Of a DNA stretch of 64,000 bases, positions 6,640 to 51,326 are shown piece by piece (position 1 is the stretch's first letter; the number at the start of each line of letters is the position of its first letter). Source of the stretch: a bacterium (GTDB taxonomy: Bacteria > Acidobacteriota > Terriglobia > Bryobacterales > Bryobacteraceae); assembly GCA_050260275.1 (NCBI GenBank), contig JBLNBX010000206.1, positions 40,653 through 104,652 of the forward strand, read 5' to 3'. The notes under the pieces were generated by a model that searched no databases, was not told the DNA's origin, and was given only the letters and a program-made list of their open reading frames with translations. The position numbers and the translations under genes were made by a program.

Positions 6640-6835
6640 CGTAGCGGCCCGCAGGAGTCCGCTGCGCGAGCACGTGAGGCTCAAGAGAAATGAATCATTC
6701 TGAGTACCATCGGCCGGAGGAGCCGCGGCGGGGCGAGCGCCCGCCCGCATTGCATTCGCGCGGCAGCCCGCTAGCTCCAGCGCCGCCGGTTCAGCCGCTC
6801 CGGCAGCCCGATTCGAAGTCGTAAGCTGGTAAGCG

Positions 6836-24219: not shown

Positions 24220-24228
24220 GCAGAAACC

Positions 24229-25617: not shown

Positions 25618-26237
25618 TCTTCAATCCGCGAGCGGATGGTTTCGGGGGTACAGGGATCCGGCAGCACGTCGCCAATAACGGCGAGCGAGTCCGCGCCCGC
25701 GGCGAGCGTCTCGAGAGCATTCGCACGGGTGATTCCGCCGATAGCGACGAGCGGCCGGCCGGCCGCGCCCTCCTTCGCCGCACGCAGGCCATCCAGACCG
25801 GCCACAGGGTCGGGATTCTCCTTGGAAGCGGTCGGATTCACGGGTCCGAAAGCCAGATAGTCGACCGGCTGCCCGGCGGCGGCCGCCACCTGCTCCTGGT
25901 TGTGGGTGGAGTAGCCCAGGATTCGGTCCGGACCAATGAGCCTCCGGGCGATGTGCGCCGGAACGTCGTCCTGCCCGACATGCAGGCCGGCATCGAGCAT
26001 CATGGCGATGTCGGCGCGGTCGTCGATGATGTAGAGCGCGCCCGCCGAGCGGCACAACCCTGCGATGCGTTCGGCCTGTTCGAAAACGCCGCGTGTGAAG
26101 TTGCCTTTGTGCCGGAACTGAAGGATGCGCGCGCCGCCCTCAAGCATGGCCGCGGCGGCCGAGAAGGCGTCACAGCCGCGCCGCTCCAGCGTGGCGGTAT
26201 CGAGGATCGGATACAGGAGGGGTAGTTCTGCTTTCAA
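25593..26237 (-). CDS. thiE: Thiamine-phosphate synthase
   Basis: LYPILD..., ILQFRHK, YIIDDRADIAMMLDAGLHVGQDD, YLAFGPVNPTASK and VAIGGIT are ThiE blocks. The 3' end overlaps the permease start by 25 nt. Confidence 0.9.
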   Translation of the reverse strand: MKAELPLLYPILDTATLERRGCDAFSAAAAMLEGGARILQFRHKGNFTRGVFEQAERIAGLCRSAGALYIIDDRADIAMMLDAGLHVGQDDVPAHIARRLIGPDRILGYSTHNQEQVAAAAGQPVDYLAFGPVNPTASKENPDPVAGLDGLRAAKEGAAGRPLVAIGGITRANALETLAAGADSLAVIGDVLPDPCTPETIRSRIEEWARLLKK

Positions 26238-26289
26238 CCGGATTTCTCAATGATAACGCGGGAGCGTATCAGTCTGTACAATTCGAACA

Positions 26290-30825: not shown

Positions 30826-30858
30826 TCGAAGAAAGGGACGAAACACCATCCTACTGTG

Positions 30859-32076
30859 ATGCCGGACTTCGAAACAAATCCGAGGGCCGTTGAGGCCGTT
30901 ATCGAAAAGCTCGTCTATGGCGGCGCGGGACTGGCGCGCATCGATGGGCGCGTCGCGCTGGTGCCGTTCGTGCTTCCAGGCGAGCGCGTGCGCATCGAGC
31001 CGCAGGCAGGGCGCCGCGGCGTGCTCTCGGCCCGGCTCGAGAGCGTCGTCGAGCCTTCAGCGGCGCGGACCCATCCGCCCTGCCCTTTTTTCTACCGGTG
31101 TGGGGGATGCCAGTACCAGCACGGCATCTACGAGGCGCAAGTGGAGGCGAAACGCGCGATAGTCGCCGAGACGTTGGCGCGCATCGGCAAGCTCGAGCCT
31201 CCCGGCGAGATCGATGCAATCACAGGCGAGCCCTGGGGCTACCGAAACCGCACACAGTTCCACGTTGAGCGCAACCGGCTCGGCTATTTCGGCTTCGGCA
31301 CGCACGCTCTCGTTCCGGTGGACCGCTGCCCCATCTCATCGCCCCGGATCAACGAGGTCCTCACGGCGCTCAACGGCATGGTGCGCGACCGCCGCTGGCC
31401 CGCTTTTGTGCGATCCGTCGAGGTGTTCACGAACGAAACGGAGGTTCAGATAAACGTGCGCGAAACGGACCGCCCCGTCGCGCGGCGCTTCTTTGAGTGG
31501 TGCGCGGAGGCGGTTCCGGGCTTCGCGCCCGCCGCAATCGAGTACCGCGCCGCATCGGACACCTACCGCGTGGGCCGCAATTCGTTCTTCCAGGTAAACC
31601 GCTTCCTCACCGGCCGGCTCGTCGAGCGCGCGCTCGAGGGCGCATCGGGCGGGACGGCGTTCGATCTGTATGCCGGCGCAGGCCTGTTCTCTCTGCAGCT
31701 CGCGCGGCGGTTCGAGCGCGTCACGGCTGTCGAGGGCGGCGCCGCGGCACGCGACCTGGAGTACAACGCCGAACGCGCCGGCGTGCGCCTCGAGGTACGC
31801 CGCAGTCCGGTGGAAGCATTTCTTGAAGGCATCTCCGAAGCGCCGGATTTCGTCCTTGCCGACCCGCCTCGTGCGGGCTTGGGCAAGTCCGCGGTGCGCT
31901 CTCTGCTGCGGCTGGAGCCGGCGCGGCTTTCCATTGTGTCGTGCGATCCCGCGACGCTCGCGCGCGACCTCGCCGCTCTCACGGCGGGCGGCTACAGGCT
32001 AGCGCGGCTCACCCTGATAGACTTGTTCCCGCAGACTTACCACATCGAGACGGTCTCAACGCTGGAGAGGGCGTAA
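30859..32076 (+). CDS. RumA/RlmD-family 23S rRNA (uracil-C5)-methyltransferase (TRAM domain, 4Fe-4S)
   Basis: Starts at the in-frame ATG at 30859 (MPDFETNPRAVEAVIEKLVYGGAGLARIDG...). Contains the Cys cluster CPFFYRCGGCQYQH, SAM motif FDLYAGAGLFSL, and DPPRAGLG with SCDPATLARD. The upstream part of ORF 30217..32076 is antisense to trpS. Confidence 0.85.
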   Translation: MPDFETNPRAVEAVIEKLVYGGAGLARIDGRVALVPFVLPGERVRIEPQAGRRGVLSARLESVVEPSAARTHPPCPFFYRCGGCQYQHGIYEAQVEAKRAIVAETLARIGKLEPPGEIDAITGEPWGYRNRTQFHVERNRLGYFGFGTHALVPVDRCPISSPRINEVLTALNGMVRDRRWPAFVRSVEVFTNETEVQINVRETDRPVARRFFEWCAEAVPGFAPAAIEYRAASDTYRVGRNSFFQVNRFLTGRLVERALEGASGGTAFDLYAGAGLFSLQLARRFERVTAVEGGAAARDLEYNAERAGVRLEVRRSPVEAFLEGISEAPDFVLADPPRAGLGKSAVRSLLRLEPARLSIVSCDPATLARDLAALTAGGYRLARLTLIDLFPQTYHIETVSTLERA

Positions 32077-32090
32077 CGAGTGCACCTGGA

Positions 32091-32127
32091 CGCCGCGGCG
32101 CAGACTTGCGCGGCGCCCCGTTCTTTT
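32091..32127 (+). terminator. Candidate intrinsic terminator after the rlmD-like gene
   Basis: An imperfect GC stem (cgccgcggcgca / tgcgcggcg, one mismatch, loop gact) is followed by ccccgTTCTTTT. The T-tract abuts the stop of the convergent SBP gene. Confidence 0.3.
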
Positions 32128-33173
32128 CACTGCGGATTCTGTTGAGCCTCCGCCTTCGAAACGATGCGTACGGGCCGCCGGTTCTGCCCGAACTCGTCCC
32201 ACTCGATGAGGCCGCTCGCGCCTTCGTACGGCGAGAGGGCGCCCATGGCCCTGCGTATCCGCTCACGGTTCAAACCGCCCCGCCGCACCGCCTGCGCAAG
32301 CATCTTCACCGAATCGTAAGCGCATGCAGAGGCATAGTCGGGGAACCGCGTCTGCTCGCTCAGCAGCGGGAACTGAACACCAGCACCGTTGAACTCCGCC
32401 CGGCCCATGGAGGGTCCGCCGTATATCTGCCCCTTGTAGCCGCTTTCGCGAAGTGCACTCACCGCAGCGGCGCTGTCCCGCGCGTCTGCGATGACGATGG
32501 CCGGTTCGATGCCGTTCGCGACAGCCGCGGCAGCGCGTCCAGCGTCGTTCGGCCCGAACTCGACCAGACGCGAGATCGAGACCAGCGGCTTCAGCTTCGA
32601 TAGCAGTGCCCGCGAATCGTGATCCGTTGAAGCGATGACGAGCACAGACTGCCCTTTCACGGCCTGCGCGAGCGCCTGCGCTATCACGTCGTCGCCCTGC
32701 ACGCACGAGAAGATCCAGGGCAATCCGGCGGTGTGGATGCTGCGGTCCGATGAGGAGGGGTTCACAACCGTGAGGAGGGCTTTGGCCGCAATCTGCTCCG
32801 CCAGGTGCACCGCATCCCCGTTCTCCGTGGCGATGATGGCCCAGACGCGGTCGCGAAACGCCATGCGCGTCAGGTGCTGCGCGCCGGCGCGCCACGGATC
32901 GTCGGCCCAGCCTGGTAAAAGGCGAAACGGCCGCCCTTTGTACCCGCCGTCGCGGTTTAGCTCGGCGAGAGCCTGGTTCGCAGCATCCCACATGGGACCT
33001 TCCGGAGGCCCGAACCAGCCGAAGAGAACCTCGCTGACCTCCGGCTCGGGAGACTCCGCCCCCGGGCCCGCGAACTCGACAGGCGTCTTGCGGCCATCTT
33101 TGTACGGCTGGGGCGCATCCTGGGCTGCGCCCCAGGCCGCGGCTACAAGGAGAACTGCTATGAGGCGCGTCAC
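32127..33173 (-). CDS. Periplasmic binding protein, Leu/Ile/Val-binding (Peripla_BP_6) family, no cognate ABC genes nearby
   Basis: The likely GTG start at 33173 overlaps the upstream TGA (GTGA) and gives the signal peptide VTRLIAVLLVAAAWGAAQ. Type-1 PBP-like blocks follow (VWAIIATENGDAVHLAEQIAAKALLTVVNPSSSD, VLVIASTDHDS). Confidence 0.8.
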   Translation of the reverse strand: MTRLIAVLLVAAAWGAAQDAPQPYKDGRKTPVEFAGPGAESPEPEVSEVLFGWFGPPEGPMWDAANQALAELNRDGGYKGRPFRLLPGWADDPWRAGAQHLTRMAFRDRVWAIIATENGDAVHLAEQIAAKALLTVVNPSSSDRSIHTAGLPWIFSCVQGDDVIAQALAQAVKGQSVLVIASTDHDSRALLSKLKPLVSISRLVEFGPNDAGRAAAAVANGIEPAIVIADARDSAAAVSALRESGYKGQIYGGPSMGRAEFNGAGVQFPLLSEQTRFPDYASACAYDSVKMLAQAVRRGGLNRERIRRAMGALSPYEGASGLIEWDEFGQNRRPVRIVSKAEAQQNPQ

Positions 33174-34636
33174 TCCGCTCTTGGCGCCTGCAGGCCCACG
33201 TGCTCCGGCGTGCGGCGTGGCAGATCCGATTCCGGAACGCCGAGATCCTTGCGCGAGTAATACTTCCACCGGCCCCCCTCGTACTTAGCCAGGAACACCT
33301 CGCCGATGTCGTCGAGCACGGCACTGAACTGAATATCTCCGGTTACGCCCCGGAAAGGAGTGTTGCGGTACGCCAGCAAGTCGCGGATCTTGGCGCGGTT
33401 CAGCCCCGCTTCCTGCACGGCCCAGATGAGCATGTTCATGCCGTCGTAGGCGTGCGAGGCGTACGTCTCTGGCTCTTCGCCAAAGCGCGCCTTGAACCGC
33501 TCGCGGAAGGACGCGAACAACGGATTGTTGCTGTCGGGATTCCAGGGATACCCGGCGACGACGCCCTCGGCGTTCTTGCCGGCGATCTTGACAAACTCGT
33601 CCGAGACCATGCGGTCGCACCCGTAGAAGGGCTGCGTCATGCCTATCGCCCGCATCTGATTCAGGATCAGCGCGCCTTCCTTCGCGTCGCCCCAGTGCAC
33701 GACCGCGTCGAGATTGGAGGCCTTCATGCGCTCGAGCTGGAGCGAGAAATCCGTGGAGCCAACCTTGTACGCCATCTCGATCAGGATGGGGTATTGCATG
33801 CGCCGCGCCGAGTCGTTCACCTCGCGCACCCCGAACCGCCCGTAGCGGTTGGAACTGCGGATGATCCCTATCCGCTTGTGCCCCATCTTGCGAATCATGT
33901 AGTCGACGAGGAGATAGCCCATCTGGCGGTCGTCGCCGATGCACCGCATGACCCACGGAATGTTCGTCTCGATATACGTCGGATCCGTATTCCCGGTGTT
34001 GACCATGACCAGCTCGGCCTTGAGCGCAACACGGATGGCGATATGACTGTTCGCGCCGTCGATGGTGCCGAGAATCCCCCAGACGTTGTCCTTATATGCC
34101 TGCTTGATGATCTCGTTCCCGGACGCGCCCCACAGGCCGTTATCGTTGCTGATGACGAGCTCGAAAGGTATCTTGCGCTTGAGGTAGCCTCCGCGCGCGT
34201 TGGCCTCCTCGATCGCCAGCCGCGCACCCTGCAGCATCTTTATGCCGAGGGTTTCCTCGTGGCTCATGCCGCCTGTGGCCGCCGACACCGTCGCCATGAG
34301 CGGCCCGATGAAACCGATCTTCACGGTTCTCAAGTCCGGGCCGGGCTCCGGAATCGCGCGCCCGGGTCCCGTGTACTCCATCTGAGTCAGAAAGTGCCGC
34401 TTGTACGGCTTTATCCCGCCGTACGGCTCCACTGACTCCGGAGTCTTGGCGTAGTTCGTGTCGATGCGCAGCGGCAGCTTGGGAGTCTGATAGGCCGTGA
34501 GGCTGTTGACTTCCTTCAGTATCCTGGCTGCTTCCGGATCGCCCAGCAAGATCCAGGGTTCGACTTTCGGGTCCGGCTTGTACTGCGCCCACGCCAAAGC
34601 GGCGGTGGCGGCGAGCAACACGAATCTGGCTGTCAC
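33170..34636 (-). CDS. Periplasmic binding protein, Leu/Ile/Val-binding (Peripla_BP_6) family
   Basis: GTG start in a GTGA overlap with the upstream stop and signal peptide MTARFVLLAATAALAWAQ. Contains VKIGFIGPL...GARLAIEEANARGG, VWGILGTIDGANSHIAIRVALKAELVMVN and ETYASHAYDGMNMLIWAV. Confidence 0.85.
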   Translation of the reverse strand: MTARFVLLAATAALAWAQYKPDPKVEPWILLGDPEAARILKEVNSLTAYQTPKLPLRIDTNYAKTPESVEPYGGIKPYKRHFLTQMEYTGPGRAIPEPGPDLRTVKIGFIGPLMATVSAATGGMSHEETLGIKMLQGARLAIEEANARGGYLKRKIPFELVISNDNGLWGASGNEIIKQAYKDNVWGILGTIDGANSHIAIRVALKAELVMVNTGNTDPTYIETNIPWVMRCIGDDRQMGYLLVDYMIRKMGHKRIGIIRSSNRYGRFGVREVNDSARRMQYPILIEMAYKVGSTDFSLQLERMKASNLDAVVHWGDAKEGALILNQMRAIGMTQPFYGCDRMVSDEFVKIAGKNAEGVVAGYPWNPDSNNPLFASFRERFKARFGEEPETYASHAYDGMNMLIWAVQEAGLNRAKIRDLLAYRNTPFRGVTGDIQFSAVLDDIGEVFLAKYEGGRWKYYSRKDLGVPESDLPRRTPEHVGLQAPRAE

Positions 34637-35793
34637 TTTGCGCCTCCCTGCTGCTGCGCGATGCTGGTTACCATAGGAGGCCGCTCGCGCAGGCCCCTGT
34701 AATACCCCTCGCCGATGCCCCAGCCCAGGCCCTTAGCCGTGCCTATCCATACGTCGTTGCCGTCCACGTCGGCGGCGATGATGTAGTTGTGCGGAATGCT
34801 GACGGGCAGTTCCACCGTCTCGAGCACCTGTTTGTCCCGCATCACGACCGCCTTGCCGCCTTCGCCGTCCGGGTTCCGCGTATAGGACACCCATGTGTTG
34901 GTCGCAAAATCCACGATCGCGGCCGCGCCCTTGTCAGTACAGAACCAGGCCTCGTCCGAACTGCGGGCGCTCAGGTTGTTGATGAAATCGCTCGGCAGCC
35001 CGGAGTCCTGGTTGTAGAATGCCCGCCAGTTGCGCCCGTCGTATCTGGACGCGCCGAAGTACGACGAAACCCACAAAGCGCCCTCAACTTCCTGGGCGGC
35101 GGTAGTGATCACGTGGAGAATGCCATCGTCGCGGTACAGGTCTATCTCCATCTCGCGGTCCGGATCCAGGTAATCCTTCCAGCGGTCCGTCGAGATTGTG
35201 TACTCGAGAACTCCGCTGCCCCACACGGCCAGGAACATCTTGTCGCCGCCGTTATAGCTGATGCCGTAGTTCCATATCTCCTCCATGGGAGCGTTCTTCT
35301 CGTTGTAAATGGTCCACTCACCGGTCCTGGTGTTGTAGCGGCTGGCTCCGGCGGTGGTGGCGGCCCAGACGTTGTCGCCCTGGACAGCGACACCGTACAC
35401 CACGTCGTTCACAAGCCCGCTGTTCAGTTGGTGCCAGTGGTCGAAGCGCCCGCCCGAGAACCGCGCCAGCCCTCCACCGAACAGCGCCAGCCAGACGTCC
35501 CCGGTCTTGGGGTCAATATCGATACCGGCAACAGCCTGGAACGGCAGGCCGTCTTTCTCGGTCCAGCTCCTGATCTTTCCGGTGCGCTTGTCGAGCATGG
35601 CCAGGCCATTCTCGGTGCCGATCCACACGCGCGGGCCGTCCGCTTTTATAGCGAAGATGTGGTCGTTTGGAAGACCGTCTTTGACGGTGAAGTGTTTCCA
35701 TTTGGTGTAGACGTACGGCAGCTTCACGGCATCGGCCCCGAAAGCCGCTCCGCAGAAGGCCAGAATCACTACAGCGGCCGCGCTGGTCCGCAT
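34633..35793 (-). CDS. Exported stand-alone beta-propeller with two-component-regulator-propeller (Reg_prop)-like repeats
   Basis: Signal peptide, then repeated units of the type KDGLPNDHIFAIKADGPRVWIGTENGLAMLD, WTEKDGLPFQAVAGIDID...VWLALFGGGLARF and NSGLVNDVVYGVAVQGDNVWAATTAGASRY. Confidence 0.75.
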   Translation of the reverse strand: MRTSAAAVVILAFCGAAFGADAVKLPYVYTKWKHFTVKDGLPNDHIFAIKADGPRVWIGTENGLAMLDKRTGKIRSWTEKDGLPFQAVAGIDIDPKTGDVWLALFGGGLARFSGGRFDHWHQLNSGLVNDVVYGVAVQGDNVWAATTAGASRYNTRTGEWTIYNEKNAPMEEIWNYGISYNGGDKMFLAVWGSGVLEYTISTDRWKDYLDPDREMEIDLYRDDGILHVITTAAQEVEGALWVSSYFGASRYDGRNWRAFYNQDSGLPSDFINNLSARSSDEAWFCTDKGAAAIVDFATNTWVSYTRNPDGEGGKAVVMRDKQVLETVELPVSIPHNYIIAADVDGNDVWIGTAKGLGWGIGEGYYRGLRERPPMVTSIAQQQGGAK

Positions 35794-35803
35794 ACAAGCC
35801 TCC

Positions 35804-38659
35804 TCACAGTGTCTTGAGGTACTCGATCAAATCGTTGAGCTGATCCTTCGTCATGTCGTTCGTCACGCCGTGAGTATCGTCGGGGTTGTAAACCGTCCAG
35901 ATCTCTTCGAGCGTGGCGGCCATGCCGTTGTGAAGATACGGCGCCGAGTCGTAGATGTTATTCAGGTGCGGCGTGTCGAACTTGCCCTGACGATCCGACG
36001 GCTGCTTGGTTCCGACGTCGTGCAAGCTGCGATCTGTGAAGTACGGCGGAAAGTGGCACGTGATACACCGGTTTTCCACCGGGATTTCGCGGCCATCGGT
36101 GGTCGTCGTACGCGCGAACAACGCCTTTCCGCGCCGTTGCGCGGGCGTCAGCGGAGCGCCGAGCGCCCGGTACCGGTTCGGCGGGCGTTCGATGGTGGTG
36201 ATGTAGTAGTCCACCGCGGCCAGCTCCTCGGGCGTGAACGGCGCAAGGCGCGTAAAGAATACGGCCAGCCTCGCTCCGCACTGCCGTGAAAGGCTCGGGT
36301 TCGTCCCTTCCCATTTGAAGGGAGCGGTGTCCAGTATGCCCCTTAGCGTGCGGTTATCCACCGGGCTCACCCCTATGCCGTCCCCCTCGATGTCGTACGT
36401 GATGCCGTCGATATGGCCATCCGGATGGCAGGAATGGCAGGAGTGCTGCCGGTGGAAAGTAATCCTCGCGTTGTGGAAGAGGAGCTCGCCCTTCCGCCGC
36501 TTCGTGATCTGCTTGGGCCCGCCGAGGTCGATGCGTCCGGCGGCCTCCATCTTTGCGAGGTCGATCACCGTCAGCGAGTCATCGAGCGTGTTAGCGACGT
36601 ACGCCACCCGGTTGTCCGGCGAAGCCAGGATTCCGCGAGGGCTGTCCTTAACGTCTATGTGCTTGATGACGAATTCGGTGGCGTAGCCAAGGTGATTGGG
36701 CAGGACGTGCTTTAGCTCGTAGGGCGTCGCGCGGCGGAGGATCGCCATCAGTTTCTCGAGATCCACAACCGCGACGCGGTTCGTGCCGGCGCTCGTGACG
36801 AGCGCATACCGCCCGTCGGGCGTGCAGGCGACGTCGGCGGCGTCCGCGAAGCCCATATCGGGCTCGTCGAGCAGCACCTGGTTCACTTCGCCGTCAGCGC
36901 GAATCAGCGCCAGACCGTTCGTGATGGTCCAGCCCTGCAGAAGGCGGGTCATGGGCACCAAGTTTTTGGTGCGGTTCATCGTCGCGACTGCGTACTCGCC
37001 GCTCGGGTGCCAGTCAATGCCCATCATCATGTTCGCGCCATCGACGACGTGGCGCTCGCTAACCACACCGCGGCCGGTTTCGATTTCAGTTACTTCCGAG
37101 ACGAAGGGTTCACGGAGGGGCGTGAACCGGGAGAGCATGTTTGTCACGAGCATCCTCGCGCCGTCCGGAGAAAGCGCCATCGACCACGGACCGCGGCTCG
37201 CGCTCAGCGTCTTCGTGTACTCGAGCTCCGCCACGTCGAACACCGTCATGTCTTCCGAGGAGGTGTTGAGGACGTACAGCATCCTGCCCTCGCGGTCCGT
37301 CATCAGGCCATGCGGCTCGTCGCCTACTTTCAGCGTCTGGATCACCTTTCGCGCATCCGCGTCGAGCACCGACACGGTGTCGTCATGACGATTGCTCGCG
37401 AAAGCGATCCGGCCGTCCGGCGTGAAGGTTACGTCCGCCGGCATGCGGCCTACAGGGATCTCCGCCACACGCTCCCGCGCGGCCGTGTCGACGACGATCA
37501 ACGAATCCGATCCCTCGCACGCCACCCACAGTTCCTTCGAGCCAGGCCGCAAAGCCATGTTGACAGGGTTCTTGTAGCGGACCTCCTCGGCGCCGCCGTT
37601 CGTGCTCGAAACCAGCGGTTTTGTAGGATGCGCGATTTTCTCCATACCCGCCGCGGCATCGAACTTCTCCCCGTGGCAGGTGCGGCAGGTTTCAGCCGAG
37701 GGCATCTTCAAGCCCGCTTGAACCGCCGCGCGCCGGTCGCGCATGATGGCTTCGGGCATATATTCAGAGCCCGGCCCGTGACACGCTTCACACCCCACGC
37801 CCTCGTCGGCGAGCGCCGTTTCGAGCCGGGGCGCGCCGTATCCGGTCGCGTGGCACCTCAGGCACTCCGGCGCTTCCGCCGGCTCTCCCTCGATGCCCTG
37901 CTTCGCGGCCTGTTCGTATGCCTTGGGAGAACTCAGGACCGCCCACGCCTGTGCGTGCGGGCTCATGCGCCAAAGGCTGTACTGGTGACCGTGCAGCTCG
38001 CCCCTATGGCACGAGCCGCACACCGCGGAGCCGACGTACTTGGGCCCGTCCGTCTTCTCCGGTTGCGGCAGCGCCGGGATGGAGCCCGTCGCGCGTTTCC
38101 CCTCCGGCAGAGGATAAGCGATCATCTCCCTGCCCTTCTTCATGTCCACCGGGGCGGTCTTGAGCACCGCTGCGTGCGAGCCTTTCTCGATGTGGCATCC
38201 CATGCAGAGCCGCTCGTCCGGCATTCTGAGGCCGTTCTCCATGGCGGCCTTCCTGTCGCGCATGATGTCCGCAGCCATGTACTCGCTGCCTGGGCCGTGG
38301 CACCTCTCGCACTGCACGCCTTCTTCGATGCGGAACGTGTCGTCCTTCTGCCACTCTTCCGCGTCGTACGCGGTGGCATGGCAGCCCAGGCAGATGGGCG
38401 ACTCCTGCGGTTTCTGGCGCAGCCCGCTGATCTCCGCAATTTGCCGCGATTCCGGACGGGCCAGCGCCGCCCAGGCGCGGCTGTGCTTGGAGTGCAGCCA
38501 CAGGCTGTACTGGTTGCCCATTCCGCCCCCGGTGTGACAGCTTCCGCACACGCGCGAGCCCACATAGACCGGCTTCTTGTTCGGCGCACCGTGAAGCGTC
38601 GCCACGGCGGCGACGGTCAGCGCCGCGCAAGCGCTAAACACCAGCGCAGCACGCTTCAT
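35804..38659 (-). CDS. Exported decaheme c-type cytochrome fusion: two tetraheme modules, a YVTN-type beta-propeller and a di-heme CCP/MauG-like C-terminus
   Basis: Ten CxxCH motifs: CGSCH, CLGCH, CERCH, CMGCH, CGSCH, CLRCH, CEACH, CRTCH, CHSCH, CITCH. The central region has propeller repeats (DSLIVVDTAARERV...VTFTPDGRIAFASNRHDDTVSVLD...). The C-terminus has FDTPHLNNIYDSAPYLHNG, typical of di-heme peroxidase/MauG proteins. Confidence 0.85.
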   Translation of the reverse strand: MKRAALVFSACAALTVAAVATLHGAPNKKPVYVGSRVCGSCHTGGGMGNQYSLWLHSKHSRAWAALARPESRQIAEISGLRQKPQESPICLGCHATAYDAEEWQKDDTFRIEEGVQCERCHGPGSEYMAADIMRDRKAAMENGLRMPDERLCMGCHIEKGSHAAVLKTAPVDMKKGREMIAYPLPEGKRATGSIPALPQPEKTDGPKYVGSAVCGSCHRGELHGHQYSLWRMSPHAQAWAVLSSPKAYEQAAKQGIEGEPAEAPECLRCHATGYGAPRLETALADEGVGCEACHGPGSEYMPEAIMRDRRAAVQAGLKMPSAETCRTCHGEKFDAAAGMEKIAHPTKPLVSSTNGGAEEVRYKNPVNMALRPGSKELWVACEGSDSLIVVDTAARERVAEIPVGRMPADVTFTPDGRIAFASNRHDDTVSVLDADARKVIQTLKVGDEPHGLMTDREGRMLYVLNTSSEDMTVFDVAELEYTKTLSASRGPWSMALSPDGARMLVTNMLSRFTPLREPFVSEVTEIETGRGVVSERHVVDGANMMMGIDWHPSGEYAVATMNRTKNLVPMTRLLQGWTITNGLALIRADGEVNQVLLDEPDMGFADAADVACTPDGRYALVTSAGTNRVAVVDLEKLMAILRRATPYELKHVLPNHLGYATEFVIKHIDVKDSPRGILASPDNRVAYVANTLDDSLTVIDLAKMEAAGRIDLGGPKQITKRRKGELLFHNARITFHRQHSCHSCHPDGHIDGITYDIEGDGIGVSPVDNRTLRGILDTAPFKWEGTNPSLSRQCGARLAVFFTRLAPFTPEELAAVDYYITTIERPPNRYRALGAPLTPAQRRGKALFARTTTTDGREIPVENRCITCHFPPYFTDRSLHDVGTKQPSDRQGKFDTPHLNNIYDSAPYLHNGMAATLEEIWTVYNPDDTHGVTNDMTKDQLNDLIEYLKTL

Positions 38660-40302
38660 CTCCTGGTCCCTCCGCTTGCCAGCGCGTCGTGCACCGGCTT
38701 CAAAGACTGGTTCGCCCTGACGTTCCCGATTTTTTCCACCTTCCCGTCCGGCCAGCGGATCTCGACTGTGGCTGATTCGTTCGCACCCAACCCGAAAAGC
38801 AGCCGACCGTCACCCTGCGACAGGTATCCGCGGACAGGAATGACATCCTCTACCTGCCTCAGAGTCCCAGTTGTGGCCGTCACGCGCGCGCCGATGGCCA
38901 GGCGCGATCCAGTAGGGAACCTCAGCAGAGGCTCGACTCTCAGCCAGTTGCCCGTCTGGTCTCCGCCGTCGTTGCGTAGAACCTTCGCCGGGGCGTTTAT
39001 GTTCACGATGACCAGGTCGGTATCGCCGTCGTTGTCAATGTCGCCCCAGGCCGCCCCGCGGCCGACGTATTTCTCGAAAAAGTACGTCCCCGACAACTGC
39101 GACACATCCTCGAACGTGCCGTCGCCGCGATTTCGCGCCAGCGTGTCTTCCTGCACGTACTCGTGGTGCGCGTTGCCGTGCGTAGTGAAGATGTCGAGCC
39201 AGCCGTCGTTGTCGTAGTCGAGCAGTATGCCGGCCCAGCCGGCGTACTGGCCCATCATCTGCGCCAGGCCGGACTGCACCGACCGGTGCTGCCATAGCCC
39301 CGGCCTCACCCCAACAAGCAGGCTGTTGTAGTTCAGGTCGGGAATGTAGATGTCGGGCAAGCCATCGCGGTTGACATCGCCCACGAACGGCCCCATGGAC
39401 GCGACGTTCTGTCCGTTTTCGCCGAACGCCGTGCCCGCATCGACCGAGCGCTCGATGTACGTTCCGTCCGGCAAGGCTTCGAAGTGGTCGTTCTCCATCG
39501 AGTCGTTCGTGACGAACACGTCGAGGCGCCCGTCGTTGTTCAGGTCGGCCACGGTCACGCTCATGCCGCGCCCGTCCGGCTTCCACATTCCGACTTCTTT
39601 AGTGACGTCGGTGAATGTGCCGTCTCCGTTATTGCGGAACAGAAAGTCCGGCTCGCCGTTGTAGCTCAGCGGCCCGGGATAGCCCGCGGCCGGATAGAAA
39701 TCGCGGAACTTGCCATCGTCGTAGGTAAGGTAGTTGCAGACGTAGACATCGAGCCAGCCGTCGTTGTTGTAGTCGTACCAGACTGCGGAGATGCTCCAGT
39801 GCGTAGCATCCGCCAGACCCGCCTGTTCTCCAACCTCGGTGAACGTTCCGTCGCCGTTGTTCCGATACAGCAGGTTAGGACCGTAGTTCAGAACATACAG
39901 ATCCTCATCCCCGTCATTGTCGTAGTCCGCTGCCGAGCAGCCCGTCGAGAAGATCCCCTTGCCGTCCACGCCCGCCTGGGCCGTCACGTCGGTAAATGTG
40001 CCGTCGCCGTTGTTCCTGTAGAGCTTGTTAGACAGCTTGCCCCGCAGGTCGCGCCCCTCGTTGTCGCTGACGCCCTTAGTCCACTTCCCGGTGACGAAAT
40101 AGATATCGAGCAGGCCGTCATTGTTATAGTCGAACAGGCACACGCCGGCGCCCGTTCCCTCGACTATGTTGTCCATGTGACGGTCGCCATACGAGTACCG
40201 GAATGTGATGCCGGCCTGCTCGGTGATGTCCGTAAAGACCGGGAGTTTCTTTTCTCCAGCGGCCGAAAGCACAGCCAGCGCCGAGATCAGTAAGAGCCTC
40301 AT
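38656..40302 (-). CDS. CRTAC1-family protein (FG-GAP/VCBS repeats plus ASPIC/UnbV C-terminal domain), exported
   Basis: The start at MRLLLISALAVLSAAG (40302) overlaps the upstream TGA (ATGA). Repeated FDYNNDGxLDIYV / LYRNNGDGTFTDVT units are followed by the C-terminal AIGARVTATTG...RGYLSQGDGRLLFGLG...VEIRWPDGK. The ORF is open to 40605. Confidence 0.85.
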   Translation of the reverse strand: MRLLLISALAVLSAAGEKKLPVFTDITEQAGITFRYSYGDRHMDNIVEGTGAGVCLFDYNNDGLLDIYFVTGKWTKGVSDNEGRDLRGKLSNKLYRNNGDGTFTDVTAQAGVDGKGIFSTGCSAADYDNDGDEDLYVLNYGPNLLYRNNGDGTFTEVGEQAGLADATHWSISAVWYDYNNDGWLDVYVCNYLTYDDGKFRDFYPAAGYPGPLSYNGEPDFLFRNNGDGTFTDVTKEVGMWKPDGRGMSVTVADLNNDGRLDVFVTNDSMENDHFEALPDGTYIERSVDAGTAFGENGQNVASMGPFVGDVNRDGLPDIYIPDLNYNSLLVGVRPGLWQHRSVQSGLAQMMGQYAGWAGILLDYDNDGWLDIFTTHGNAHHEYVQEDTLARNRGDGTFEDVSQLSGTYFFEKYVGRGAAWGDIDNDGDTDLVIVNINAPAKVLRNDGGDQTGNWLRVEPLLRFPTGSRLAIGARVTATTGTLRQVEDVIPVRGYLSQGDGRLLFGLGANESATVEIRWPDGKVEKIGNVRANQSLKPVHDALASGGTRR

Positions 40303-42131
40303 CGCTTCCCTCCCGCCGCGCCGTCCGGCAATGCAGTGAAGTGAGCGCCCAGGTCGATCCACTCGACAATGGTCCGCTTCTCGTCGTCGGTCAACTGGGC
40401 CGATCCTGGCGGCGGCATCGGTTCGGGCGCTGGGGAATTCGCCTCGGCGTCCCATGGCCGTGACGTGTTCCTGCCGTTCAGCATCCAGACCAGACGGCTG
40501 GTCCGGGCGCGCCCGGGCGTCGTAAGTCTCCACAACTCGCCATAGATGGATCGCGAATCCCCGGCCAGCCTGGTTGTCGTCATGTCGCCGTGGCACTCCG
40601 CGCACTTCGCCCTGATGATGGGCTCGACATCGCGCGCGAATTCGATGGCGCGGCGGCGCTCAGGAGGCAGCGTCAGTTTCGGCGCTGGGTGAAGGAGCGC
40701 TTTTGCCATCACGTTCTCGGGAGTGCGCTCCCCGTCCTCGTGACAGCCGATGCAGCCCCGCTGCTCCTTGTTCTTTGCCCACATCCAGGACGTGGACCGG
40801 ATGGACATTCCGTTCTCGTCCAGAACCTGGAGCTGTATTGGGATATTCGGAGGAACCTCGATCTGAAACGAGCCGTCTTCGTCGAGGTCGATCTCGCCCA
40901 GGAACCTGCGCCGAAGCGTCTTCGATTTCGTGCCCGTGTCGTCTCCTTTGGCGGGAACGCCCTCGAGCACGCGGAGGCGCCGGGCCATCCCCGGCTGGAA
41001 CACGTCCCGGCCGAGATCGCTGTCGTACACGCTCAGGCAGTACAGCTTCGACCAGTCGGCATCGTCCTCCACGACGGACGAATGCGCGTCAGGTTCCTCC
41101 CGTGCAACCAGCGCGCGCGCCTGGATGGCGTGAGCATTCGGGGTCCGGAACACCAGCGTCAGGTTTCCCGTGTCCGGCTCGTAGCGGTACACGCCGTGCG
41201 TTCCACCCGGCGCCCGGCGCGACATGAGCACCGAGCCATCCGGCAGCGCCGAAGGCGAATGGAACAACCCTTGTTCGGGCGAGGTAAGCCGCCGGTACGA
41301 TTTCAGACTCCGTCGCAGCGTCACGCTCGCCAGCGCACCCGCGCCGTCCCAGGCTTTTTCATCCGGTTCGACAAACATCACCACGCGCTTTGCCGTTACA
41401 ACCGGCATGGCTTTGAGCCGCGCGCCCTGCGAGCCCGAGAACGCCGCGAAATCCACCCCGTCGTTATGAACGCCGAACAACTCTATCAGGGTTCGCGCGG
41501 AGCGCCCCATCCAACTCGCGAACAGAAGCCGTCCATCCGGCATCACCACCGGATCGAAACTGCTGGATGCCGTATAGGTCAGGCGCCGCAGCCCGCTGCC
41601 GTCCTCGCGGACGGTGTACAGGCTTGTGGCCGGCGCGCCGCCATACTCGGCGCGCTCTCCCGCGAGGTCGCTCACGAACGCGATCTGGCGAACCGGCGCA
41701 GGGTCGTTCAAGTAGAAAATCGGCGACGTGTATACGGGATTCCGGCAGTTGCCCGCGTCGCGCGTCACCTGGCGGACGCCGGAGCCGTCGGCGTTCATTT
41801 CGAAGATGTTCCAGGCGTCTCCGGGCGCGCGCTTCGCGGCAAACAGGATGCGCTTCCCGTCGAACGAGATCTCCGGGTCCGCGGCGCTCGCAAAACCGCG
41901 CGTCAACACGCGCTCGCCGCCGGCAGGCAGGCGCAGAACGATGCTTCCGCCCTCGCCGTAGCCGCGCAAGCTAGCGCCTTCGGTGGGACGCCACTCGCCG
42001 GCCGCGGCCGCCGGAAGGCGCGTGTACACGATCGGAAAGGCGGCGCCGGGATCGCGCTTTGCGGGCTGCTGGCAAATCAGAGCGGCGGCGGATACTGCGA
42101 TCAAAACAGGTAACTTAGCGCCTTGCGCCAT
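40299..42131 (-). CDS. Exported TolB/PD40-like beta-propeller protein with a C-terminal di-heme cytochrome c region
   Basis: Signal peptide plus PD40-like units (PEISFDGKRILFAAKR...WNIFEMNADGSGVRQVT, LYTVREDGSGLRRLTY, PVVMPDGRLLFASW). The C-terminus has CIGCHEDGERTPEN and CAECHGD. Confidence 0.75.
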   Translation of the reverse strand: MAQGAKLPVLIAVSAAALICQQPAKRDPGAAFPIVYTRLPAAAAGEWRPTEGASLRGYGEGGSIVLRLPAGGERVLTRGFASAADPEISFDGKRILFAAKRAPGDAWNIFEMNADGSGVRQVTRDAGNCRNPVYTSPIFYLNDPAPVRQIAFVSDLAGERAEYGGAPATSLYTVREDGSGLRRLTYTASSSFDPVVMPDGRLLFASWMGRSARTLIELFGVHNDGVDFAAFSGSQGARLKAMPVVTAKRVVMFVEPDEKAWDGAGALASVTLRRSLKSYRRLTSPEQGLFHSPSALPDGSVLMSRRAPGGTHGVYRYEPDTGNLTLVFRTPNAHAIQARALVAREEPDAHSSVVEDDADWSKLYCLSVYDSDLGRDVFQPGMARRLRVLEGVPAKGDDTGTKSKTLRRRFLGEIDLDEDGSFQIEVPPNIPIQLQVLDENGMSIRSTSWMWAKNKEQRGCIGCHEDGERTPENVMAKALLHPAPKLTLPPERRRAIEFARDVEPIIRAKCAECHGDMTTTRLAGDSRSIYGELWRLTTPGRARTSRLVWMLNGRNTSRPWDAEANSPAPEPMPPPGSAQLTDDEKRTIVEWIDLGAHFTALPDGAAGGKR

Positions 42132-42176
42132 GCAAGTAGACCTCTGCCGCGCGTATGCTGCTGGGAAGCGCTGGCG

Positions 42177-42671
42177 CTAGTTGCCTGGGCCGTTGCGCTT
42201 GAACATCGCAATGGCCTCGATCTCAACCAGCAGTTCCGGGCGGCACAGCTTCGCCTGGATACCCGTCGATGCTGGGAGAGGGTTCAGACCCTGTTCTGTG
42301 TAAAACCGGGTCCGCTCCTCGTTGAACGCGGCGTAGTCGCGGTCGATGTCGCGAAGGTAACACGTAGTCCGCACGACGTCTTTCCAGGTGGCGCCCTCGG
42401 ACTCGAGCAGTTTCGTGATGTTGTAGAACGTTCTGCGGCACTGCGCGCGGAAATTTCCGACGTGCACGGATGCCCCGTTCTCATCCACGCTCGCGGTCCC
42501 GGAAATAAACAGAATGGAGAGCCCGTTTAGATCAATGCGGATGCCGCGCGAGAAAGAACTCGGCTTGGCGTATTCATAGGCTTCGTTAAGCACCTCGGGA
42601 TTACTGATGGCCTTCTTGGGGATGCTCGTAACGCCTGCCGCCAGTTCACCGAGAACGTCGCTGATGGTCAT
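42177..42671 (-). CDS. RidA/YjgF/L-PSP family protein
   Basis: LFISGTASVDENGASVHVGNFRAQCRRTFYNITKLLESEGATWKDVVRTTCYLRDI...ELLVEIEAIAMF is the RidA-family core. The start is taken at MTISDV (42671); the ORF is open to 42719. Its stop lies 45 nt before the next gene on the same strand. Confidence 0.85.
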   Translation of the reverse strand: MTISDVLGELAAGVTSIPKKAISNPEVLNEAYEYAKPSSFSRGIRIDLNGLSILFISGTASVDENGASVHVGNFRAQCRRTFYNITKLLESEGATWKDVVRTTCYLRDIDRDYAAFNEERTRFYTEQGLNPLPASTGIQAKLCRPELLVEIEAIAMFKRNGPGN

Positions 42672-42775: not shown

Positions 42776-42864
42776 CCGGATTATAGCATCCGGGTATTCG
42801 GGTGTGAATACCTTAAATAAACTAAGCAAAATGAGTTAGCCGGTTGGGCTCGCTTCGCAACCGG
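42776..42864. promoter_or_regulatory. Three perfect short hairpins in the lower-GC divergent control region between ridA and the sensor kinase
   Basis: Hairpin 1: ccggat-tatagc-atccgg (42776..42793). Hairpin 2: ggtattc-gggtgt-gaatacc (42793..42812). Hairpin 3: ccggttg-N11-caaccgg (42840..42864). An AT-rich stretch, ttaaataaactaagcaaaatgagtta, lies between hairpins 2 and 3. Confidence 0.3.
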
Positions 42865-44470: not shown

Positions 44471-45092
44471 GATTACTGTGCTTCTGGTGGACGACCACAG
44501 CCTGGTGCGCCGGGGCTTCCGCCGTATGCTCGAGGACGATCCCGATATTCGTGTCGTCGGTGAGGCCGGCAACGGGCGCGAGGCCATCGACGCGGCGCTG
44601 CAGCTCGAGCCGCGCGTCATCGTCATGGACATGGCCATGCCCGAGATGGACGGCGTCGAAGCCACGCGGGAGATCCGCAAGCGGATGCCAAACGCGTGCG
44701 TGCTCATCGTCAGCATGTACTCGCAGGAGAACTATGTCCGCAAGGCCCTCGAGGCCGGCGCGCAGGGCTACATCCTCAAGAACGCGGACGAGGTGGACCT
44801 GGCTGCCGCCATACGCGAGGTCGCGAACGGGAAACAGGTGATCGACCCGAATATCTCGCCCGGCGGCCGCGACACGGATGGCGAAAGCCTGTCGCGTCTC
44901 ACGCCCCGCGAGCGCCAGATACTCCAGTTGATAGCCGAGGGCAACTCCAACAAGGAGATTGCGGCGCTGCTCAACCTGAGCGTTCACACCGTCGCCGTCC
45001 ACCGCGCGAACCTCATGGACCGTCTGGGCGTCCACCGCACCGCTGAACTGGTGCTGTACGCCATCCGGAAGGGACTCGTGAGGGTGCCGTGA
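44460..45092 (+). CDS. NarL/FixJ-family response regulator (REC plus LuxR-type HTH)
   Basis: MQTEITVLLVDDHSLVRRG...VIVMDMAMPEMDG (REC) and LTPRERQILQLIAEGNSNKEIAALLNLSVHTVAVHRANLM (GerE HTH). The start overlaps the kinase 3' end by 11 nt. Confidence 0.95.
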   Translation: MQTEITVLLVDDHSLVRRGFRRMLEDDPDIRVVGEAGNGREAIDAALQLEPRVIVMDMAMPEMDGVEATREIRKRMPNACVLIVSMYSQENYVRKALEAGAQGYILKNADEVDLAAAIREVANGKQVIDPNISPGGRDTDGESLSRLTPRERQILQLIAEGNSNKEIAALLNLSVHTVAVHRANLMDRLGVHRTAELVLYAIRKGLVRVP

Positions 45093-46744
45093 CGCGGGTC
45101 CTGCTCGCCATCCTCCTGGCAGCCGCCCCCGCGGGCGACATTGCCGTCCGCTTCAGCGACGTCACGGAGAAGGCCGGCATCCGTTTCGTGCACAACAATG
45201 GGGCGTTTGGGGGCAAGTACCTTCCTGAAACGATGGGTTCGGGCTGCGCCTTTTTCGACCACAACAACGATGGCTGGCCCGACATTCTTCTCGTCCAGGG
45301 CATGGACTGGCCCGGCCGGAAGAAGCAGGGCCGGACTACCCTCAAGCTGTACCGCAACAACGGCGACGGCACGTTCACCGATGTCACCGCTAAGGCCGGC
45401 CTCGACGTCGAGATGTACGGGATGGGCGTCGCCGCCGGCGATTACGACAATGACGGTTTTGCGGACGTCTACATCACCGCCGTCGGGCAGAGCCGCCTCT
45501 TTCACAACACCGGCAAGGGATCATTTGTCGACGTCACCGAGAAGTCCGGACTCGGCGGACGCGACGCGTTCTCGAGCTCAGCCCTGTGGTTCGACTACAA
45601 CCGCGACGGCTTCCTCGACCTATTCGTCACAAATTACGTTAAATGGTCTGAGAAAACGGACGTCTTCTGCACCGTAGACGGCAAGCAGAAAGCCTACTGC
45701 ACGCCTGAGGCTTACCGGGGCGCCACGAGCTGGCTGTTCCGGAACCGGGGCAACGGCACGTTCGAGGACGTCACTGCCACAAGCGGCATCTTCGACAGCA
45801 CGTCGAAGGGTTTGGGCGTCGCCATGCTCGACTACGACCTCGACGGCTGGCCGGATATCTTCGTCTCGAACGACACCGAACCGAACAAGCTCTATCACAA
45901 CCTGCGGAACGGCCAGTTCGAGGATGTAGCGCTCCAGGCCGGCGTTGCGTTTTCTACCGAAGGCAAGGCGCGCGGTGGAATGGGAGTAGACGCGGCCGAT
46001 TACAACAACTCCGGCATTCCCGCTCTCGTCGTGTCTAATTTCGACAACGAGATGCTCGGTTTCTACACCGCCATTCGCCGCGGCCTCTACACCGACAAGG
46101 CGCCTCAGACGGAGATCGGGCGGCGTTCGCGTCTCTCGCTCGGGTTCGGGACGTTTTTCTTCGACGCCGATCTCGACGGCCTGCTGGACCTTTTCGTCGC
46201 GAACGGGCATATCGACGACGAGTACAGCATGAGGAAAAACGTCCAGTTCGCGCAGCCGCCTCACCTGTTCATGAACCGGGGAGGCGCTGACTTCGTCGAT
46301 ATCGCGAGCAGTATTGGCGGCGTTTTTGCTCAACCGAAAGTTGGCCGGGGCGCGGCCTTTGCCGACTACGACCGCGATGGCGATCTCGACATTCTGATGA
46401 CAACCAATCGCGGGCCGGCTTACCTGTTCCGAAACGAGCTGTCGAACGGTAACAAGTGCATACGCTTCCGTCTCATCGGCACGAAGTCCAACCGCGACGC
46501 GATCGGAGCGATGGTCCACCTCTTCCGCGGCAAAGAGCGCGCCTCGCGCATGGTCAAGAGCGGCTCGAGCTACCAGTCACAATCGGAACTGACGATCACG
46601 TTCGGCCTCGGGACCAGCAGCACGGCCGAGCGCATCGTAATCGACTGGCCCAGCGGCAAGACCGAAGAGTATAGAAACCTCGCCGTGGGCCGCCTGTATG
46701 AGTGCACCGAGGGCGGCGGTATTCGCGATACCGGCCGGTTCTGA
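45089..46744 (+). CDS. CRTAC1-family protein (FG-GAP/VCBS repeats plus ASPIC/UnbV), second paralogue
   Basis: The GTG start overlaps the response-regulator TGA (GTGA). Contains FTDVTEKAGIRFVHNNG, repeated FDHNNDGWPDI / LYRNNGDGTFTDVT units, and C-terminal AIGAMVHLF...GSSYQSQSELTITFGLG...IVIDWPSGK. Confidence 0.85.
   Translation: MTRVLLAILLAAAPAGDIAVRFSDVTEKAGIRFVHNNGAFGGKYLPETMGSGCAFFDHNNDGWPDILLVQGMDWPGRKKQGRTTLKLYRNNGDGTFTDVTAKAGLDVEMYGMGVAAGDYDNDGFADVYITAVGQSRLFHNTGKGSFVDVTEKSGLGGRDAFSSSALWFDYNRDGFLDLFVTNYVKWSEKTDVFCTVDGKQKAYCTPEAYRGATSWLFRNRGNGTFEDVTATSGIFDSTSKGLGVAMLDYDLDGWPDIFVSNDTEPNKLYHNLRNGQFEDVALQAGVAFSTEGKARGGMGVDAADYNNSGIPALVVSNFDNEMLGFYTAIRRGLYTDKAPQTEIGRRSRLSLGFGTFFFDADLDGLLDLFVANGHIDDEYSMRKNVQFAQPPHLFMNRGGADFVDIASSIGGVFAQPKVGRGAAFADYDRDGDLDILMTTNRGPAYLFRNELSNGNKCIRFRLIGTKSNRDAIGAMVHLFRGKERASRMVKSGSSYQSQSELTITFGLGTSSTAERIVIDWPSGKTEEYRNLAVGRLYECTEGGGIRDTGRF

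Positions 46745-49289: not shown

Positions 49290-51326
<2,037 letters not shown>

Follow-up and report, generated by a model that had tools for sequence, protein, structure and literature searches.

A six-gene relative of hydrazine synthase, of the clade I type, in an uncultured Bryobacteraceae-like bacterium

The window analysed here, a 64,000-nt stretch of contig JBLNBX010000206.1 (assembly GCA_050260275.1), carries on its minus strand a Rid-like gene and, 3′ of it, six genes (g2 to g7) for exported heme, propeller and binding proteins. Between them, the products of g2 and g4 are homologous, by sequence and predicted fold, to all three hydrazine synthase (HZS) subunits, and the cluster belongs to the type already published as clade I of the HZS homologs. 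The encoded proteins very probably form a complex that is homologous to HZS without being a hydrazine synthase. To our knowledge, hydrazine synthase was long held to have no relatives, and its mechanism is unsettled. The cassette is its closest known relative outside the anammox bacteria: a widespread and functionally uncharacterised relative of a very unusual enzyme, for which the unit and the conserved motifs are defined more sharply here.

The first-pass annotation of this DNA had described a compact operon whose products are exported heme, propeller and binding proteins, and that description is upheld. It had also recognised no catalytic oxidoreductase and had matched the composition to no characterised system. 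Neither statement survives: g2 encodes a homolog of HZS-alpha and g4 a homolog of HZS-beta and HZS-gamma, and the arrangement has been published as clade I HZS homologs (PMC12758564). The claim of no known pathway is right insofar as clade I has no assigned biochemical function, but the cluster type itself was already in the literature. A search for the HZS_alpha domain had been proposed; the domain is indeed present in g2, but the beta-gamma part of g4 had gone unrecognised.

Homologs of the three hydrazine synthase subunits

In a scan of 185,579 species genomes, 356 related stretches came up, spread over three phyla or more, and the analyses of orthologs and neighbourhoods were made on the best 80 of these (loci L001 to L080). 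AF2 models of g2 and g4 were built on the family alignments and used for a fold search with Foldseek.

In the g2 protein a six-bladed PD40/TolB-like propeller is followed by an HZS_alpha middle domain and, at the C-terminus, by a class-I cytochrome c domain, with CxxCH heme sites at residue 460 in the middle domain [CIGCH(464)EDGE] and at residue 510 in the cytochrome c domain (CAECH514). It scores 71.5 bits against PF18582 (HZS_alpha) and 163.6 bits against the NCBIfam model hydrazine_alpha, the cut-off of which is 800. Among the PDB sequences it matches HZS-alpha alone (5c2v_A; E = 5.6e-42), the match being spread over four segments of the chain. The AF2 model, with an overall pLDDT of 82 that drops below 50 at residues 456–472, gives the same answer: its top fold is 5c2v_A/D (E = 7e-39, TMq 0.74), and TolB comes next at 2e-12, 27 orders weaker. 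Across the g2 orthologs the motif CIGCH-E-D-x-E is invariant, and the second heme motif varies, being CxxCH in 31, Cx4CH in 30 and absent in three. The alpha-like protein of the Paludibaculum group (loci L030, L041 and L074) is only ∼440 residues long and ends soon after CIGCHED, without the C-terminal cytochrome c domain. In the window, a Met572-Pro-Pro sequence lies near the position of the distal ligand of the alpha-II heme. His/Met ligation of the second alpha heme was considered as a family trait and dropped, as Met572 is only 66% conserved across the orthologs and the domain is gone in the Paludibaculum group.

The g4 protein is a decaheme fusion in which two c554-like tetraheme modules precede an HZS-beta-like propeller and an HZS-gamma-like domain. 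The CxxCH motifs of the N-terminal part stand at residues 38, 90, 117, 152, 214, 266, 290 and 325 and are all invariant in the 80 sequences; with the two of the gamma-like domain (residues 741 and 865) they make ten, a number found in 79 of 79 g4 orthologs. Residues 363–701 match HZS-beta among the PDB sequences (5c2v_B; E = 1.5e-36), and 5c2v_B is also the top fold for the AF2 model (TMt 0.90, r.m.s.d. 2.9 Å). The propeller carries a loop insertion at the place where HZS-beta has one. This beta-loop (TmnRTKnlVPMTRLlQGWTItNG, residues 560–582, window positions 36916–36984) is 74% invariant across three phyla and has a pLDDT of <50 in the model, a combination that fits a loop which would be ordered only within a complex. 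Residues 721–951, searched alone, match HZS-gamma (5c2v_C; E = 5.6e-20). Against the NCBIfam models, g4 scores 205.6 bits for hydrazine_BC (cut-off 1250), 150.2 bits for the beta model (cut-off 560) and 83.5 bits for hydrazine_gamma (cut-off 625). The gamma-like domain is the most conserved part of the cassette, with 45% of its positions invariant across the three phyla compared with 20–25% for the heme module, and Trp783, Cys794, Arg797 and His910 within it are invariant in the 80 g4 sequences.

The residues that matter in the Kuenenia stuttgartiensis enzyme (PDB entry 5c2v; EC 1.7.2.7) were located using offsets of 27 (alpha) and 39 (gamma) between PDB and published numbering and were followed through 62–80 orthologs from three phyla. 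In the alpha subunit, Tyr591, the ligand of heme alpha-I in HZS, aligns with Glu468 or a gap, with no Tyr close by. Cys303, which in HZS forms a Zn site with the displaced His587, is replaced by Phe231 (Phe or Tyr across the family), and a gap stands opposite His772, the distal ligand of heme alpha-II. In the gamma subunit, Cys165, which supplies the third heme thioether in HZS, corresponds to Cys794 in 80 of 80 sequences; the residue is present, and the bond is presumed by homology. His144, which lies between the gamma hemes in HZS, is Trp783, the state seen in CCP and MauG. Asp168 is the proton donor at heme gamma-I and Glu122 the proton relay in HZS (PMC12607021). The former aligns with Arg797, although a gap adjoins this position and the local alignment is uncertain, and the latter, counted by hand on the alignment, with Asp760, which is invariant in family alignment A1. 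The position of the CCP Met ligand is occupied by Leu909, followed by His910 as in HZS-gamma. For the Glu of the beta-loop that binds Mg2+ and gates the tunnel there are two candidate positions, Arg572 and Leu574, the beta numbering relative to the published one being unfixed; this Glu has been reported as not conserved in HZS homologs (PMC12758564).

Judged from these alignments, the family keeps the unusual environment of the catalytic heme of HZS-gamma, and an ordinary, presumably His-ligated heme replaces the irreducible Tyr-ligated condensation heme of HZS-alpha. The cassette thus shares with anammox HZS all three subunit folds, the layout with two active hemes, the beta-propeller loop insertion, the third-thioether cysteine and probably a bis-His gamma-II heme (from the invariant His910). 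It differs in sequence (∼24% identity, with all four NCBIfam scores below the equivalog cut-offs), in the alpha and gamma residues listed above, in its eight fused extra hemes, in four extra conserved partner genes and in a reversed gene order. The context differs as well: hydrazine dehydrogenase (HDH)/HAO or an electron-transfer module was found neither in the 64-kb window nor as a recurring neighbour among the 80 neighbourhoods, and the hosts are heterotrophic Acidobacteriota and Planctomycetota.

Classification, conservation and partner genes

Co-localised homologs of HZS-alpha and HZS-beta-gamma have been sorted into clades I to IV (Hagglund et al. 2025, Genome Biol Evol, PMC12758564). In clade I the alpha gene lies 5′ of a fused beta-gamma gene with a CRTAC1/FG-GAP gene between them, eight extra heme motifs form two c554 domains, both alpha heme sites are kept and two genes for ABC substrate-binding proteins (SBPs) follow on the 3′ side. 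Among the members are Paludibaculum fermentans, Syntrophobacter fumaroxidans, Thermogutta terrifontis, Aquisphaera giovannonii and Novipirellula artificiosorum; the same study concluded that the homologs do not conserve the residues that matter for HZS function, and it assigned them no function (PMC12758564). All of the clade I features are found in the window. The g2 gene is 5′ of g4 on the same strand, g3 sits between them with an ATGA overlap on both sides, g4 has eight N-terminal CxxCH motifs (residues 38–329) and g2 two heme sites, and the SBP genes g6 and g7 lie 3′ of g4 with g5 interposed. Clade I and the window are also alike in the loss of Tyr591, the Cys at gamma 165 and the Trp at gamma 144. 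In Paludibaculum fermentans itself (locus L074) g2 to g7 are collinear with the window, and g4 is 61% identical. Nothing essential differs, and the window adds a further member to clade I.

Beyond the published descriptions, the present analysis adds the Reg_prop gene g5 as a sixth constant member and the Bryobacterales/Acidobacteriota as a major reservoir, together with the invariant CIGCHED-x-E and Arg797 motifs, the variable second alpha heme motif and the accompanying, variable Rid-like gene. A term search of the main text of PMC12758564 found no mention of the Reg_prop gene.

A second set of relatives, 'hzsABC-like' genes, has been described in metagenome-assembled genomes (MAGs) of Phycisphaerae UBA1845, with the proposal of a wider HZS-like family acting on other substrates (Suarez/Dalcin Martins et al. 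2023, PMC10732223); the presence of anammox genes in UBA1845 could not be confirmed (PMC11266412). As in the window, the hzsA-like gene there adjoins a fused hzsBC-like gene, and the bit scores against Kuenenia fall in the same range (89–163). There, however, the hzsA-like gene is directly 5′ of the hzsBC-like gene and a CRTAC1 gene is not mentioned; going by the description, these genes may represent another clade.

The hosts among the 80 loci are Acidobacteriota, mostly Bryobacterales, with Vicinamibacteria and Paludibaculum, and Planctomycetota (Pirellulales, Phycisphaerales, Sedimentisphaerales and Thermoguttaceae). The third phylum is represented by one Anaerolineales MAG (locus L044); its g4 is closest to the Planctomycetota versions (71% identity), which may reflect horizontal transfer or an error in binning. 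When the count is restricted to loci that have enough flank, the partners are adjacent to g4 and collinear in 69 of 69 cases for g2, 77 of 77 for g3, 78 of 78 for g5, 70 of 70 for g6 and 60 of 63 for g7. Median intergenic gaps within the cassette are 2–34 nt, and the pairwise identities of all six genes are correlated (r = 0.67–0.87). The six genes g2 to g7 are inherited and evolve as one unit. Co-conservation of the whole string, which the first-pass annotation had put forward for checking, therefore extends to these six genes in three phyla and not to the Rid-like gene.

Invariant positions amount to 33% in g5, 28% in g6, 26% in g3, 26% in g4, 10% in g2 and 7% in g7, so that across the three phyla no protein of the cassette is more conserved than the single Reg_prop propeller of g5. 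Among PDB sequences its match is 4a2l, the periplasmic sensor propeller of a Bacteroides hybrid two-component system (E = 3.8e-24). The g3 protein matches 9etn, cartilage acidic protein 1 (E = 4.7e-22).

The g6 protein matches PDB entry 4gnr (E = 1e-24) and LivK (1usg; E = 2e-20). From the LivK/LivJ structures, we take Ser79, Thr102, Tyr150, Tyr202 and Glu226 to be the ligand contacts in LivK. Of these, g6 keeps Thr102 (Thr217), Tyr150 (Tyr265) and an acidic residue at Glu226 (the invariant Asp341), but Ser79 is now Gly194 and Tyr202 is now Asp317. The pattern hints at an amine-bearing ligand other than a standard alpha-amino acid, with five aligned residues as the weak evidence. Residue 216 of g6 (window positions 33989–33991), which aligns beside the LivK contact Thr102, is Asn in the window and Asp in 64 of 65 orthologs. 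Compared with LivJ/LivK (HAAT) binding proteins, the Peripla_BP_6 fold and part of the contact set in g6 are shared, but g6 has gained its N-terminal extension and lost two contact residues, and the g7 protein is strongly diverged and fast-evolving. Moreover, neither the operon nor, as a recurring feature, the 80 neighbourhoods contain a permease or ATPase gene, confirming for the family what had been noticed in the operon. With neither permease nor ATPase genes recurring, and with SBP and cytochrome genes collinear in three phyla, an amino-acid ABC uptake system placed beside the cytochromes by chance was rejected.

Possible function of the encoded complex

We favour, with a probability of roughly 0.55, the reading that g2 to g7 encode a periplasmic, multi-subunit multiheme enzyme of HZS ancestry, of the clade I type, with two active sites and acting on a small N-oxide. 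The eight-heme c554-type module would pass several electrons, via a bis-His gamma-II-like heme, to the catalytic heme. This would be a five-coordinate gamma-I-like heme that keeps the HZS-specific third thioether through Cys794. A small nitrogen oxide (NO, nitrite or hydroxylamine) may be transformed here, with the invariant Arg797 as a residue that could bias the site towards an anionic or polar substrate. The product would then move past the conserved beta-loop to the alpha-I-like heme for a second redox step, such as hydroxylamine to ammonium, near the invariant acidic E-D-x-E. If this heme is His-ligated, as the alignment suggests, it would be redox-active, and a second redox step is therefore more probable than a redox-neutral hydrazine condensation. 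The CRTAC1-like and Reg_prop propellers and the two LivJ-like proteins would most likely be fixed subunits or substrate-capture modules and not parts of a transporter.

The individual parts of this reading are not equally firm. Taken by itself, the small N-oxide as substrate is a tentative assignment, and one that we would rather doubt than defend. A bolder version, in which a dedicated six-subunit periplasmic enzyme carries out a novel two-site nitrogen transformation in soil and sediment Acidobacteriota and Planctomycetota, seems to us unlikely as it stands; examples would be NO to hydroxylamine to ammonium, or the joining of an NO-derived intermediate with an amine from the LivJ-like subunits.

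Several points weigh against the reading that we favour. The small N-oxide is suggested solely by the homology to HZS-gamma and the kept Cys of the cross-link, and the direction of electron flow is not readable from sequence. Where HZS has gamma His144 the family has Trp783, as CCP and MauG do, so that peroxide chemistry would also be conceivable. That g3, g5, g6 and g7 associate with the cytochromes is inferred solely from their synteny and co-evolution. No N-cycle genes recur beside the cassette in the 80 neighbourhoods, nor do a quinol dehydrogenase, a porin, HAO or HDH. The C-terminal heme domain of the alpha-like protein is not essential, because the Paludibaculum subgroup does without it. 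The AF2 model of g4 has a pLDDT of <50 over most of residues 731–931; with this and the low values at residues 456–472 of g2, heme-pocket geometry taken from the models was unusable and was discarded. Finally, a literature search on HZS-like, CRTAC1-cytochrome or HZS_alpha-domain proteins returned descriptive genomics and no functional studies.

The gamma-like domain could instead belong to a peroxide-driven system of the CCP/MauG type, using H2O2 or O2 with Trp783 as the hopping residue, either for peroxide detoxification or to modify, by oxidation or cross-linking, a protein or bound ligand that the propellers or binding proteins hold. MauG acts on the propeller-containing precursor of methylamine dehydrogenase, which offers an analogy. 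The domain does have the fold of the bacterial di-heme CCP/MauG proteins, with two CxxCH motifs and a Trp between the hemes: it matches PDB entries 6e1c (MbnH-type) and 1iqc and other CCPs as well as the NCBIfam MbnH and MauG models, and its invariant Trp is as in CCP/MauG (PMC12758564). The propeller weakly matches quinohemoprotein amine dehydrogenase beta (NCBIfam and Foldseek), and many hosts are aerobic or facultative soil Acidobacteriota. Yet the Pfam CCP_MauG score of 18.6 bits is below the gathering score of 25.6, and a match to RoxA is also weak. Leu909 stands where CCPs have their Met ligand, next to a His910 that is invariant as in HZS-gamma, and the HZS-specific, heme-linking Cys is retained. 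Unlike its CCP/MauG counterparts, the domain is fused to a propeller and eight hemes, and peroxide chemistry would need neither this eight-heme module nor a second heme site of the alpha type. On balance we think such a system unlikely, if well short of negligible.

We regard a system for the coupling or oxidation of amines as a fairly remote prospect. The LivJ-like proteins would bring an amino compound to the alpha-like site, where it would be coupled to, or oxidised with, a hydroxylamine-level intermediate from the gamma-like heme, forming N–N or N–O bonds but not hydrazine, and the c554-type modules would carry electrons in or out. HZS, too, links the nitrogen of an amine with one at the hydroxylamine level. 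The g6 protein is among the most conserved of the cassette without having a transporter partner, and its contact pattern would fit a ligand of the kind required. On the other side, the condensation residues of the HZS alpha site are absent, five aligned residues are a weak basis for assigning a ligand, genes for biosynthesis or export do not recur among the 80 neighbourhoods and the fast evolution of g7 fits poorly with precise delivery.

Still less probable is an electron conduit, in which Fe(III), humics or other acceptors would receive electrons from the decaheme protein, with the propellers and binding proteins as scaffolds. The g4 protein weakly matches decaheme models of the MtrC/DmsE/OmcA type, many hosts come from peat and sediments, and Paludibaculum fermentans is a dissimilatory Fe(III) reducer (PMC8407742). 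The decaheme scores are far under the cut-offs, however, no porin or outer-membrane partner recurs in the 80 neighbourhoods and the conserved core is the gamma-like domain, not the heme module. A link to the extracellular-electron-transfer clusters of peat described in a 2026 preprint was considered and dropped, its text containing none of the terms propeller, c554, YVTN and hydrazine. Lastly, a cryptic but genuine hydrazine synthase, with anammox-type chemistry outside the Brocadiia, is hardly credible and was rejected: the homologs of all three subunits with the same folds, the kept equivalent of gamma Cys165 and a similar idea put forward for the Phycisphaerae MAGs (PMC10732223) speak for it, but alpha Tyr591, Cys303 and His772 and gamma Asp168 are missing, the scores are 5–7 fold under the equivalog cut-offs, the pathway context of HDH/HAO is lacking from the window and, as a recurring feature, from the neighbourhoods, the gene order is reversed relative to anammox bacteria, and the published work leans the same way, PMC12758564 by also concluding against it and PMC11266412 by failing to confirm the UBA1845 genes.

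A non-anammox relative of HZS with a cultured host, Paludibaculum fermentans, would give a tractable route to the role of the ancestral enzyme and to the changes that created hydrazine synthesis, for which Tyr ligation of heme alpha-I, Asp168 and the loss of the fused heme module are the candidates. If the N-oxide substrate were true, the abundant Acidobacteriota of peat and soil would gain an unrecognised nitrogen-cycle activity; if the two-site nitrogen transformation were true, the cassette would represent a branch of the nitrogen cycle that has so far gone unrecognised, and a living relative of the ancestor of hydrazine synthase. The genes are currently annotated as 'multiheme cytochrome', 'YVTN/lactonase propeller', 'TolB component' or 'hypothetical', and they should not be taken as anammox markers despite the match to the HZS_alpha domain.

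Locus layout and surroundings

The seven minus-strand open reading frames (ORFs), the Rid-like gene included, are open throughout, with starts and stops at the coordinates first given and no internal stops, and public assemblies, in which genes were called independently, list the same products (548, 951 and 386 residues). The junctions, too, are as previously described: 45 nt separate the Rid-like gene from g2 and 10 nt separate g4 from g5, whereas g3 overlaps both g2 and g4 by ATGA and g6 overlaps both g5 and g7 by GTGA. The same is true of the 12 CxxCH motifs (two in g2 and ten in g4; none is found in other coding-like ORFs of the window), of the four propeller types, which Pfam assigns as PD40 (g2), FG-GAP (g3), YVTN/lactonase (g4) and Reg_prop (g5), and of the two Peripla_BP_6 proteins g6 and g7. 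Judged by eye, g2 to g7 all begin with a signal-peptide-like segment, a positive charge followed by a hydrophobic stretch.

Table 1. Features of the cassette and its surroundings, with positions in the 64,000-nt window.
Feature	Position	Strand	Evidence or remark
GC-rich hairpin directly 3′ of the g7 stop, possible operon end	32088..32118	-	10-bp stem, no U tail, z-score -1.5
g7, diverged second Peripla_BP_6 protein, 348 aa	32127..33173	-	Peripla_BP_6 67.6 bits; g6 paralog, ∼25% identity
g6, LivJ/HAAT-type periplasmic binding protein, 488 aa, N-terminal extension of ∼100 aa	33170..34636	-	Peripla_BP_6 149.7 bits
g5, single Reg_prop beta-propeller protein, 386 aa	34633..35793	-	PF07494 36.8 bits
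g4, decaheme c554/HZS-beta/HZS-gamma-like fusion, 951 aa	35804..38659	-	Pfam, NCBIfam, PDB, Foldseek
g4 C-terminal part, residues ∼715–951 and stop, HZS-gamma-like di-heme domain of CCP/MauG fold	35804..36517	-	5c2v_C match
g4 middle part, residues ∼360–705, HZS-beta-like seven-bladed YVTN propeller	36545..37582	-	5c2v_B match
g4 N-terminal part, residues ∼28–350, two tandem c554-like tetraheme modules	37610..38578	-	PF13435 115.9 bits, two stretches
g3, CRTAC1/ASPIC-type FG-GAP propeller protein, 548 aa	38656..40302	-	FG-GAP_3 177.8 bits, UnbV_ASPIC 74.5 bits
g2, HZS-alpha-like di-heme protein, 610 aa	40299..42131	-	Pfam, NCBIfam, PDB, Foldseek
Rid/YjgF-family protein, 164 aa	42177..42671	-	PF01042 72.9 bits
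Putative promoter, TTCACA-17 nt-TATAAT, extended -10 TG	42780..42808	-	sigma-70-like, 11/12 consensus matches
HisKA_3 histidine kinase	43124-44470	+	divergent from operon
LuxR-type response regulator ORF	44277-45092	+	divergent from operon
Second CRTAC1/ASPIC-like paralog	45089..46744	+	3′ of the kinase/regulator pair; association with operon possible

A promoter-like site lies ∼110 nt 5′ of the first ATG and is the sole strong minus-strand site in 31.5–43.3 kb; by its consensus match only, it is the putative promoter of the operon. No terminator-like sites are found on the minus strand inside the seven-gene string. The hairpin behind g7 possibly marks the end of the operon, on weak evidence; as an intrinsic terminator it was rejected, having no U tail and not being significant.

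The Rid-like gene had been labelled ridA and counted as part of the operon unit. The Rid/YjgF fold holds, but the score against the RidA model TIGR00004 is 53.9 bits with a cut-off of 106, and the residue equivalent to RidA Arg105 is Ser ('PAST' in place of 'PARS/PARV'), as it is in 26 of 27 cassette-linked orthologs. Arg105 of RidA is essential for catalysis. The protein has an N-terminal extension of ∼50 residues and weakly matches an FkbO/Hyg5 chorismatase model. The gene lies 5′ of the cassette in many Acidobacteriota loci and 3′ of g7 in five loci; in most Planctomycetota loci it is absent or weak, and in six an FkbO_N-Rid fusion takes the upstream position. Because its position varies or it is missing altogether, it falls outside the conserved unit and is a lineage-specific accessory add-on. 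The protein also has no signal peptide and should therefore work in a compartment other than that of g2 to g7. A role for it within the unit in imine chemistry was rejected on these grounds (variable or absent gene, no catalytic Arg and no signal peptide).

The families that recur beside the cassette are the Rid-like proteins (22 loci), extra CRTAC1 paralogs (22 of 80 loci) and a TPR protein (12 loci), the latter two mostly in Planctomycetota. The HisKA_3/LuxR pair was considered as a conserved regulator and dropped, since it is not kept across loci and only a small response-regulator family recurs (six loci). The rest of the window is ordinary chromosome, with fliFGH, an aromatic amino-acid lyase, amino-acid permeases, a penicillin amidase, a class I tRNA synthetase, an arginine decarboxylase and nuoCD. 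Two tandem amino-acid permeases, the penicillin amidase, an arginine decarboxylase of the biosynthetic type and the aromatic amino-acid lyase are found at 22492–28452, 49290–51326 and 5125–6873; none of these amino-acid and amine metabolism genes recurs beside the cassette in other genomes. A 619-residue ORF at 30217–32076 (plus strand) has a tRNA U5-methyltransferase domain only at residues 449–618, and its true start is probably much later, because its 5′ part overlaps the class I (Trp/Tyr-type) tRNA synthetase (PF00579) at 29836–30849 on the minus strand.

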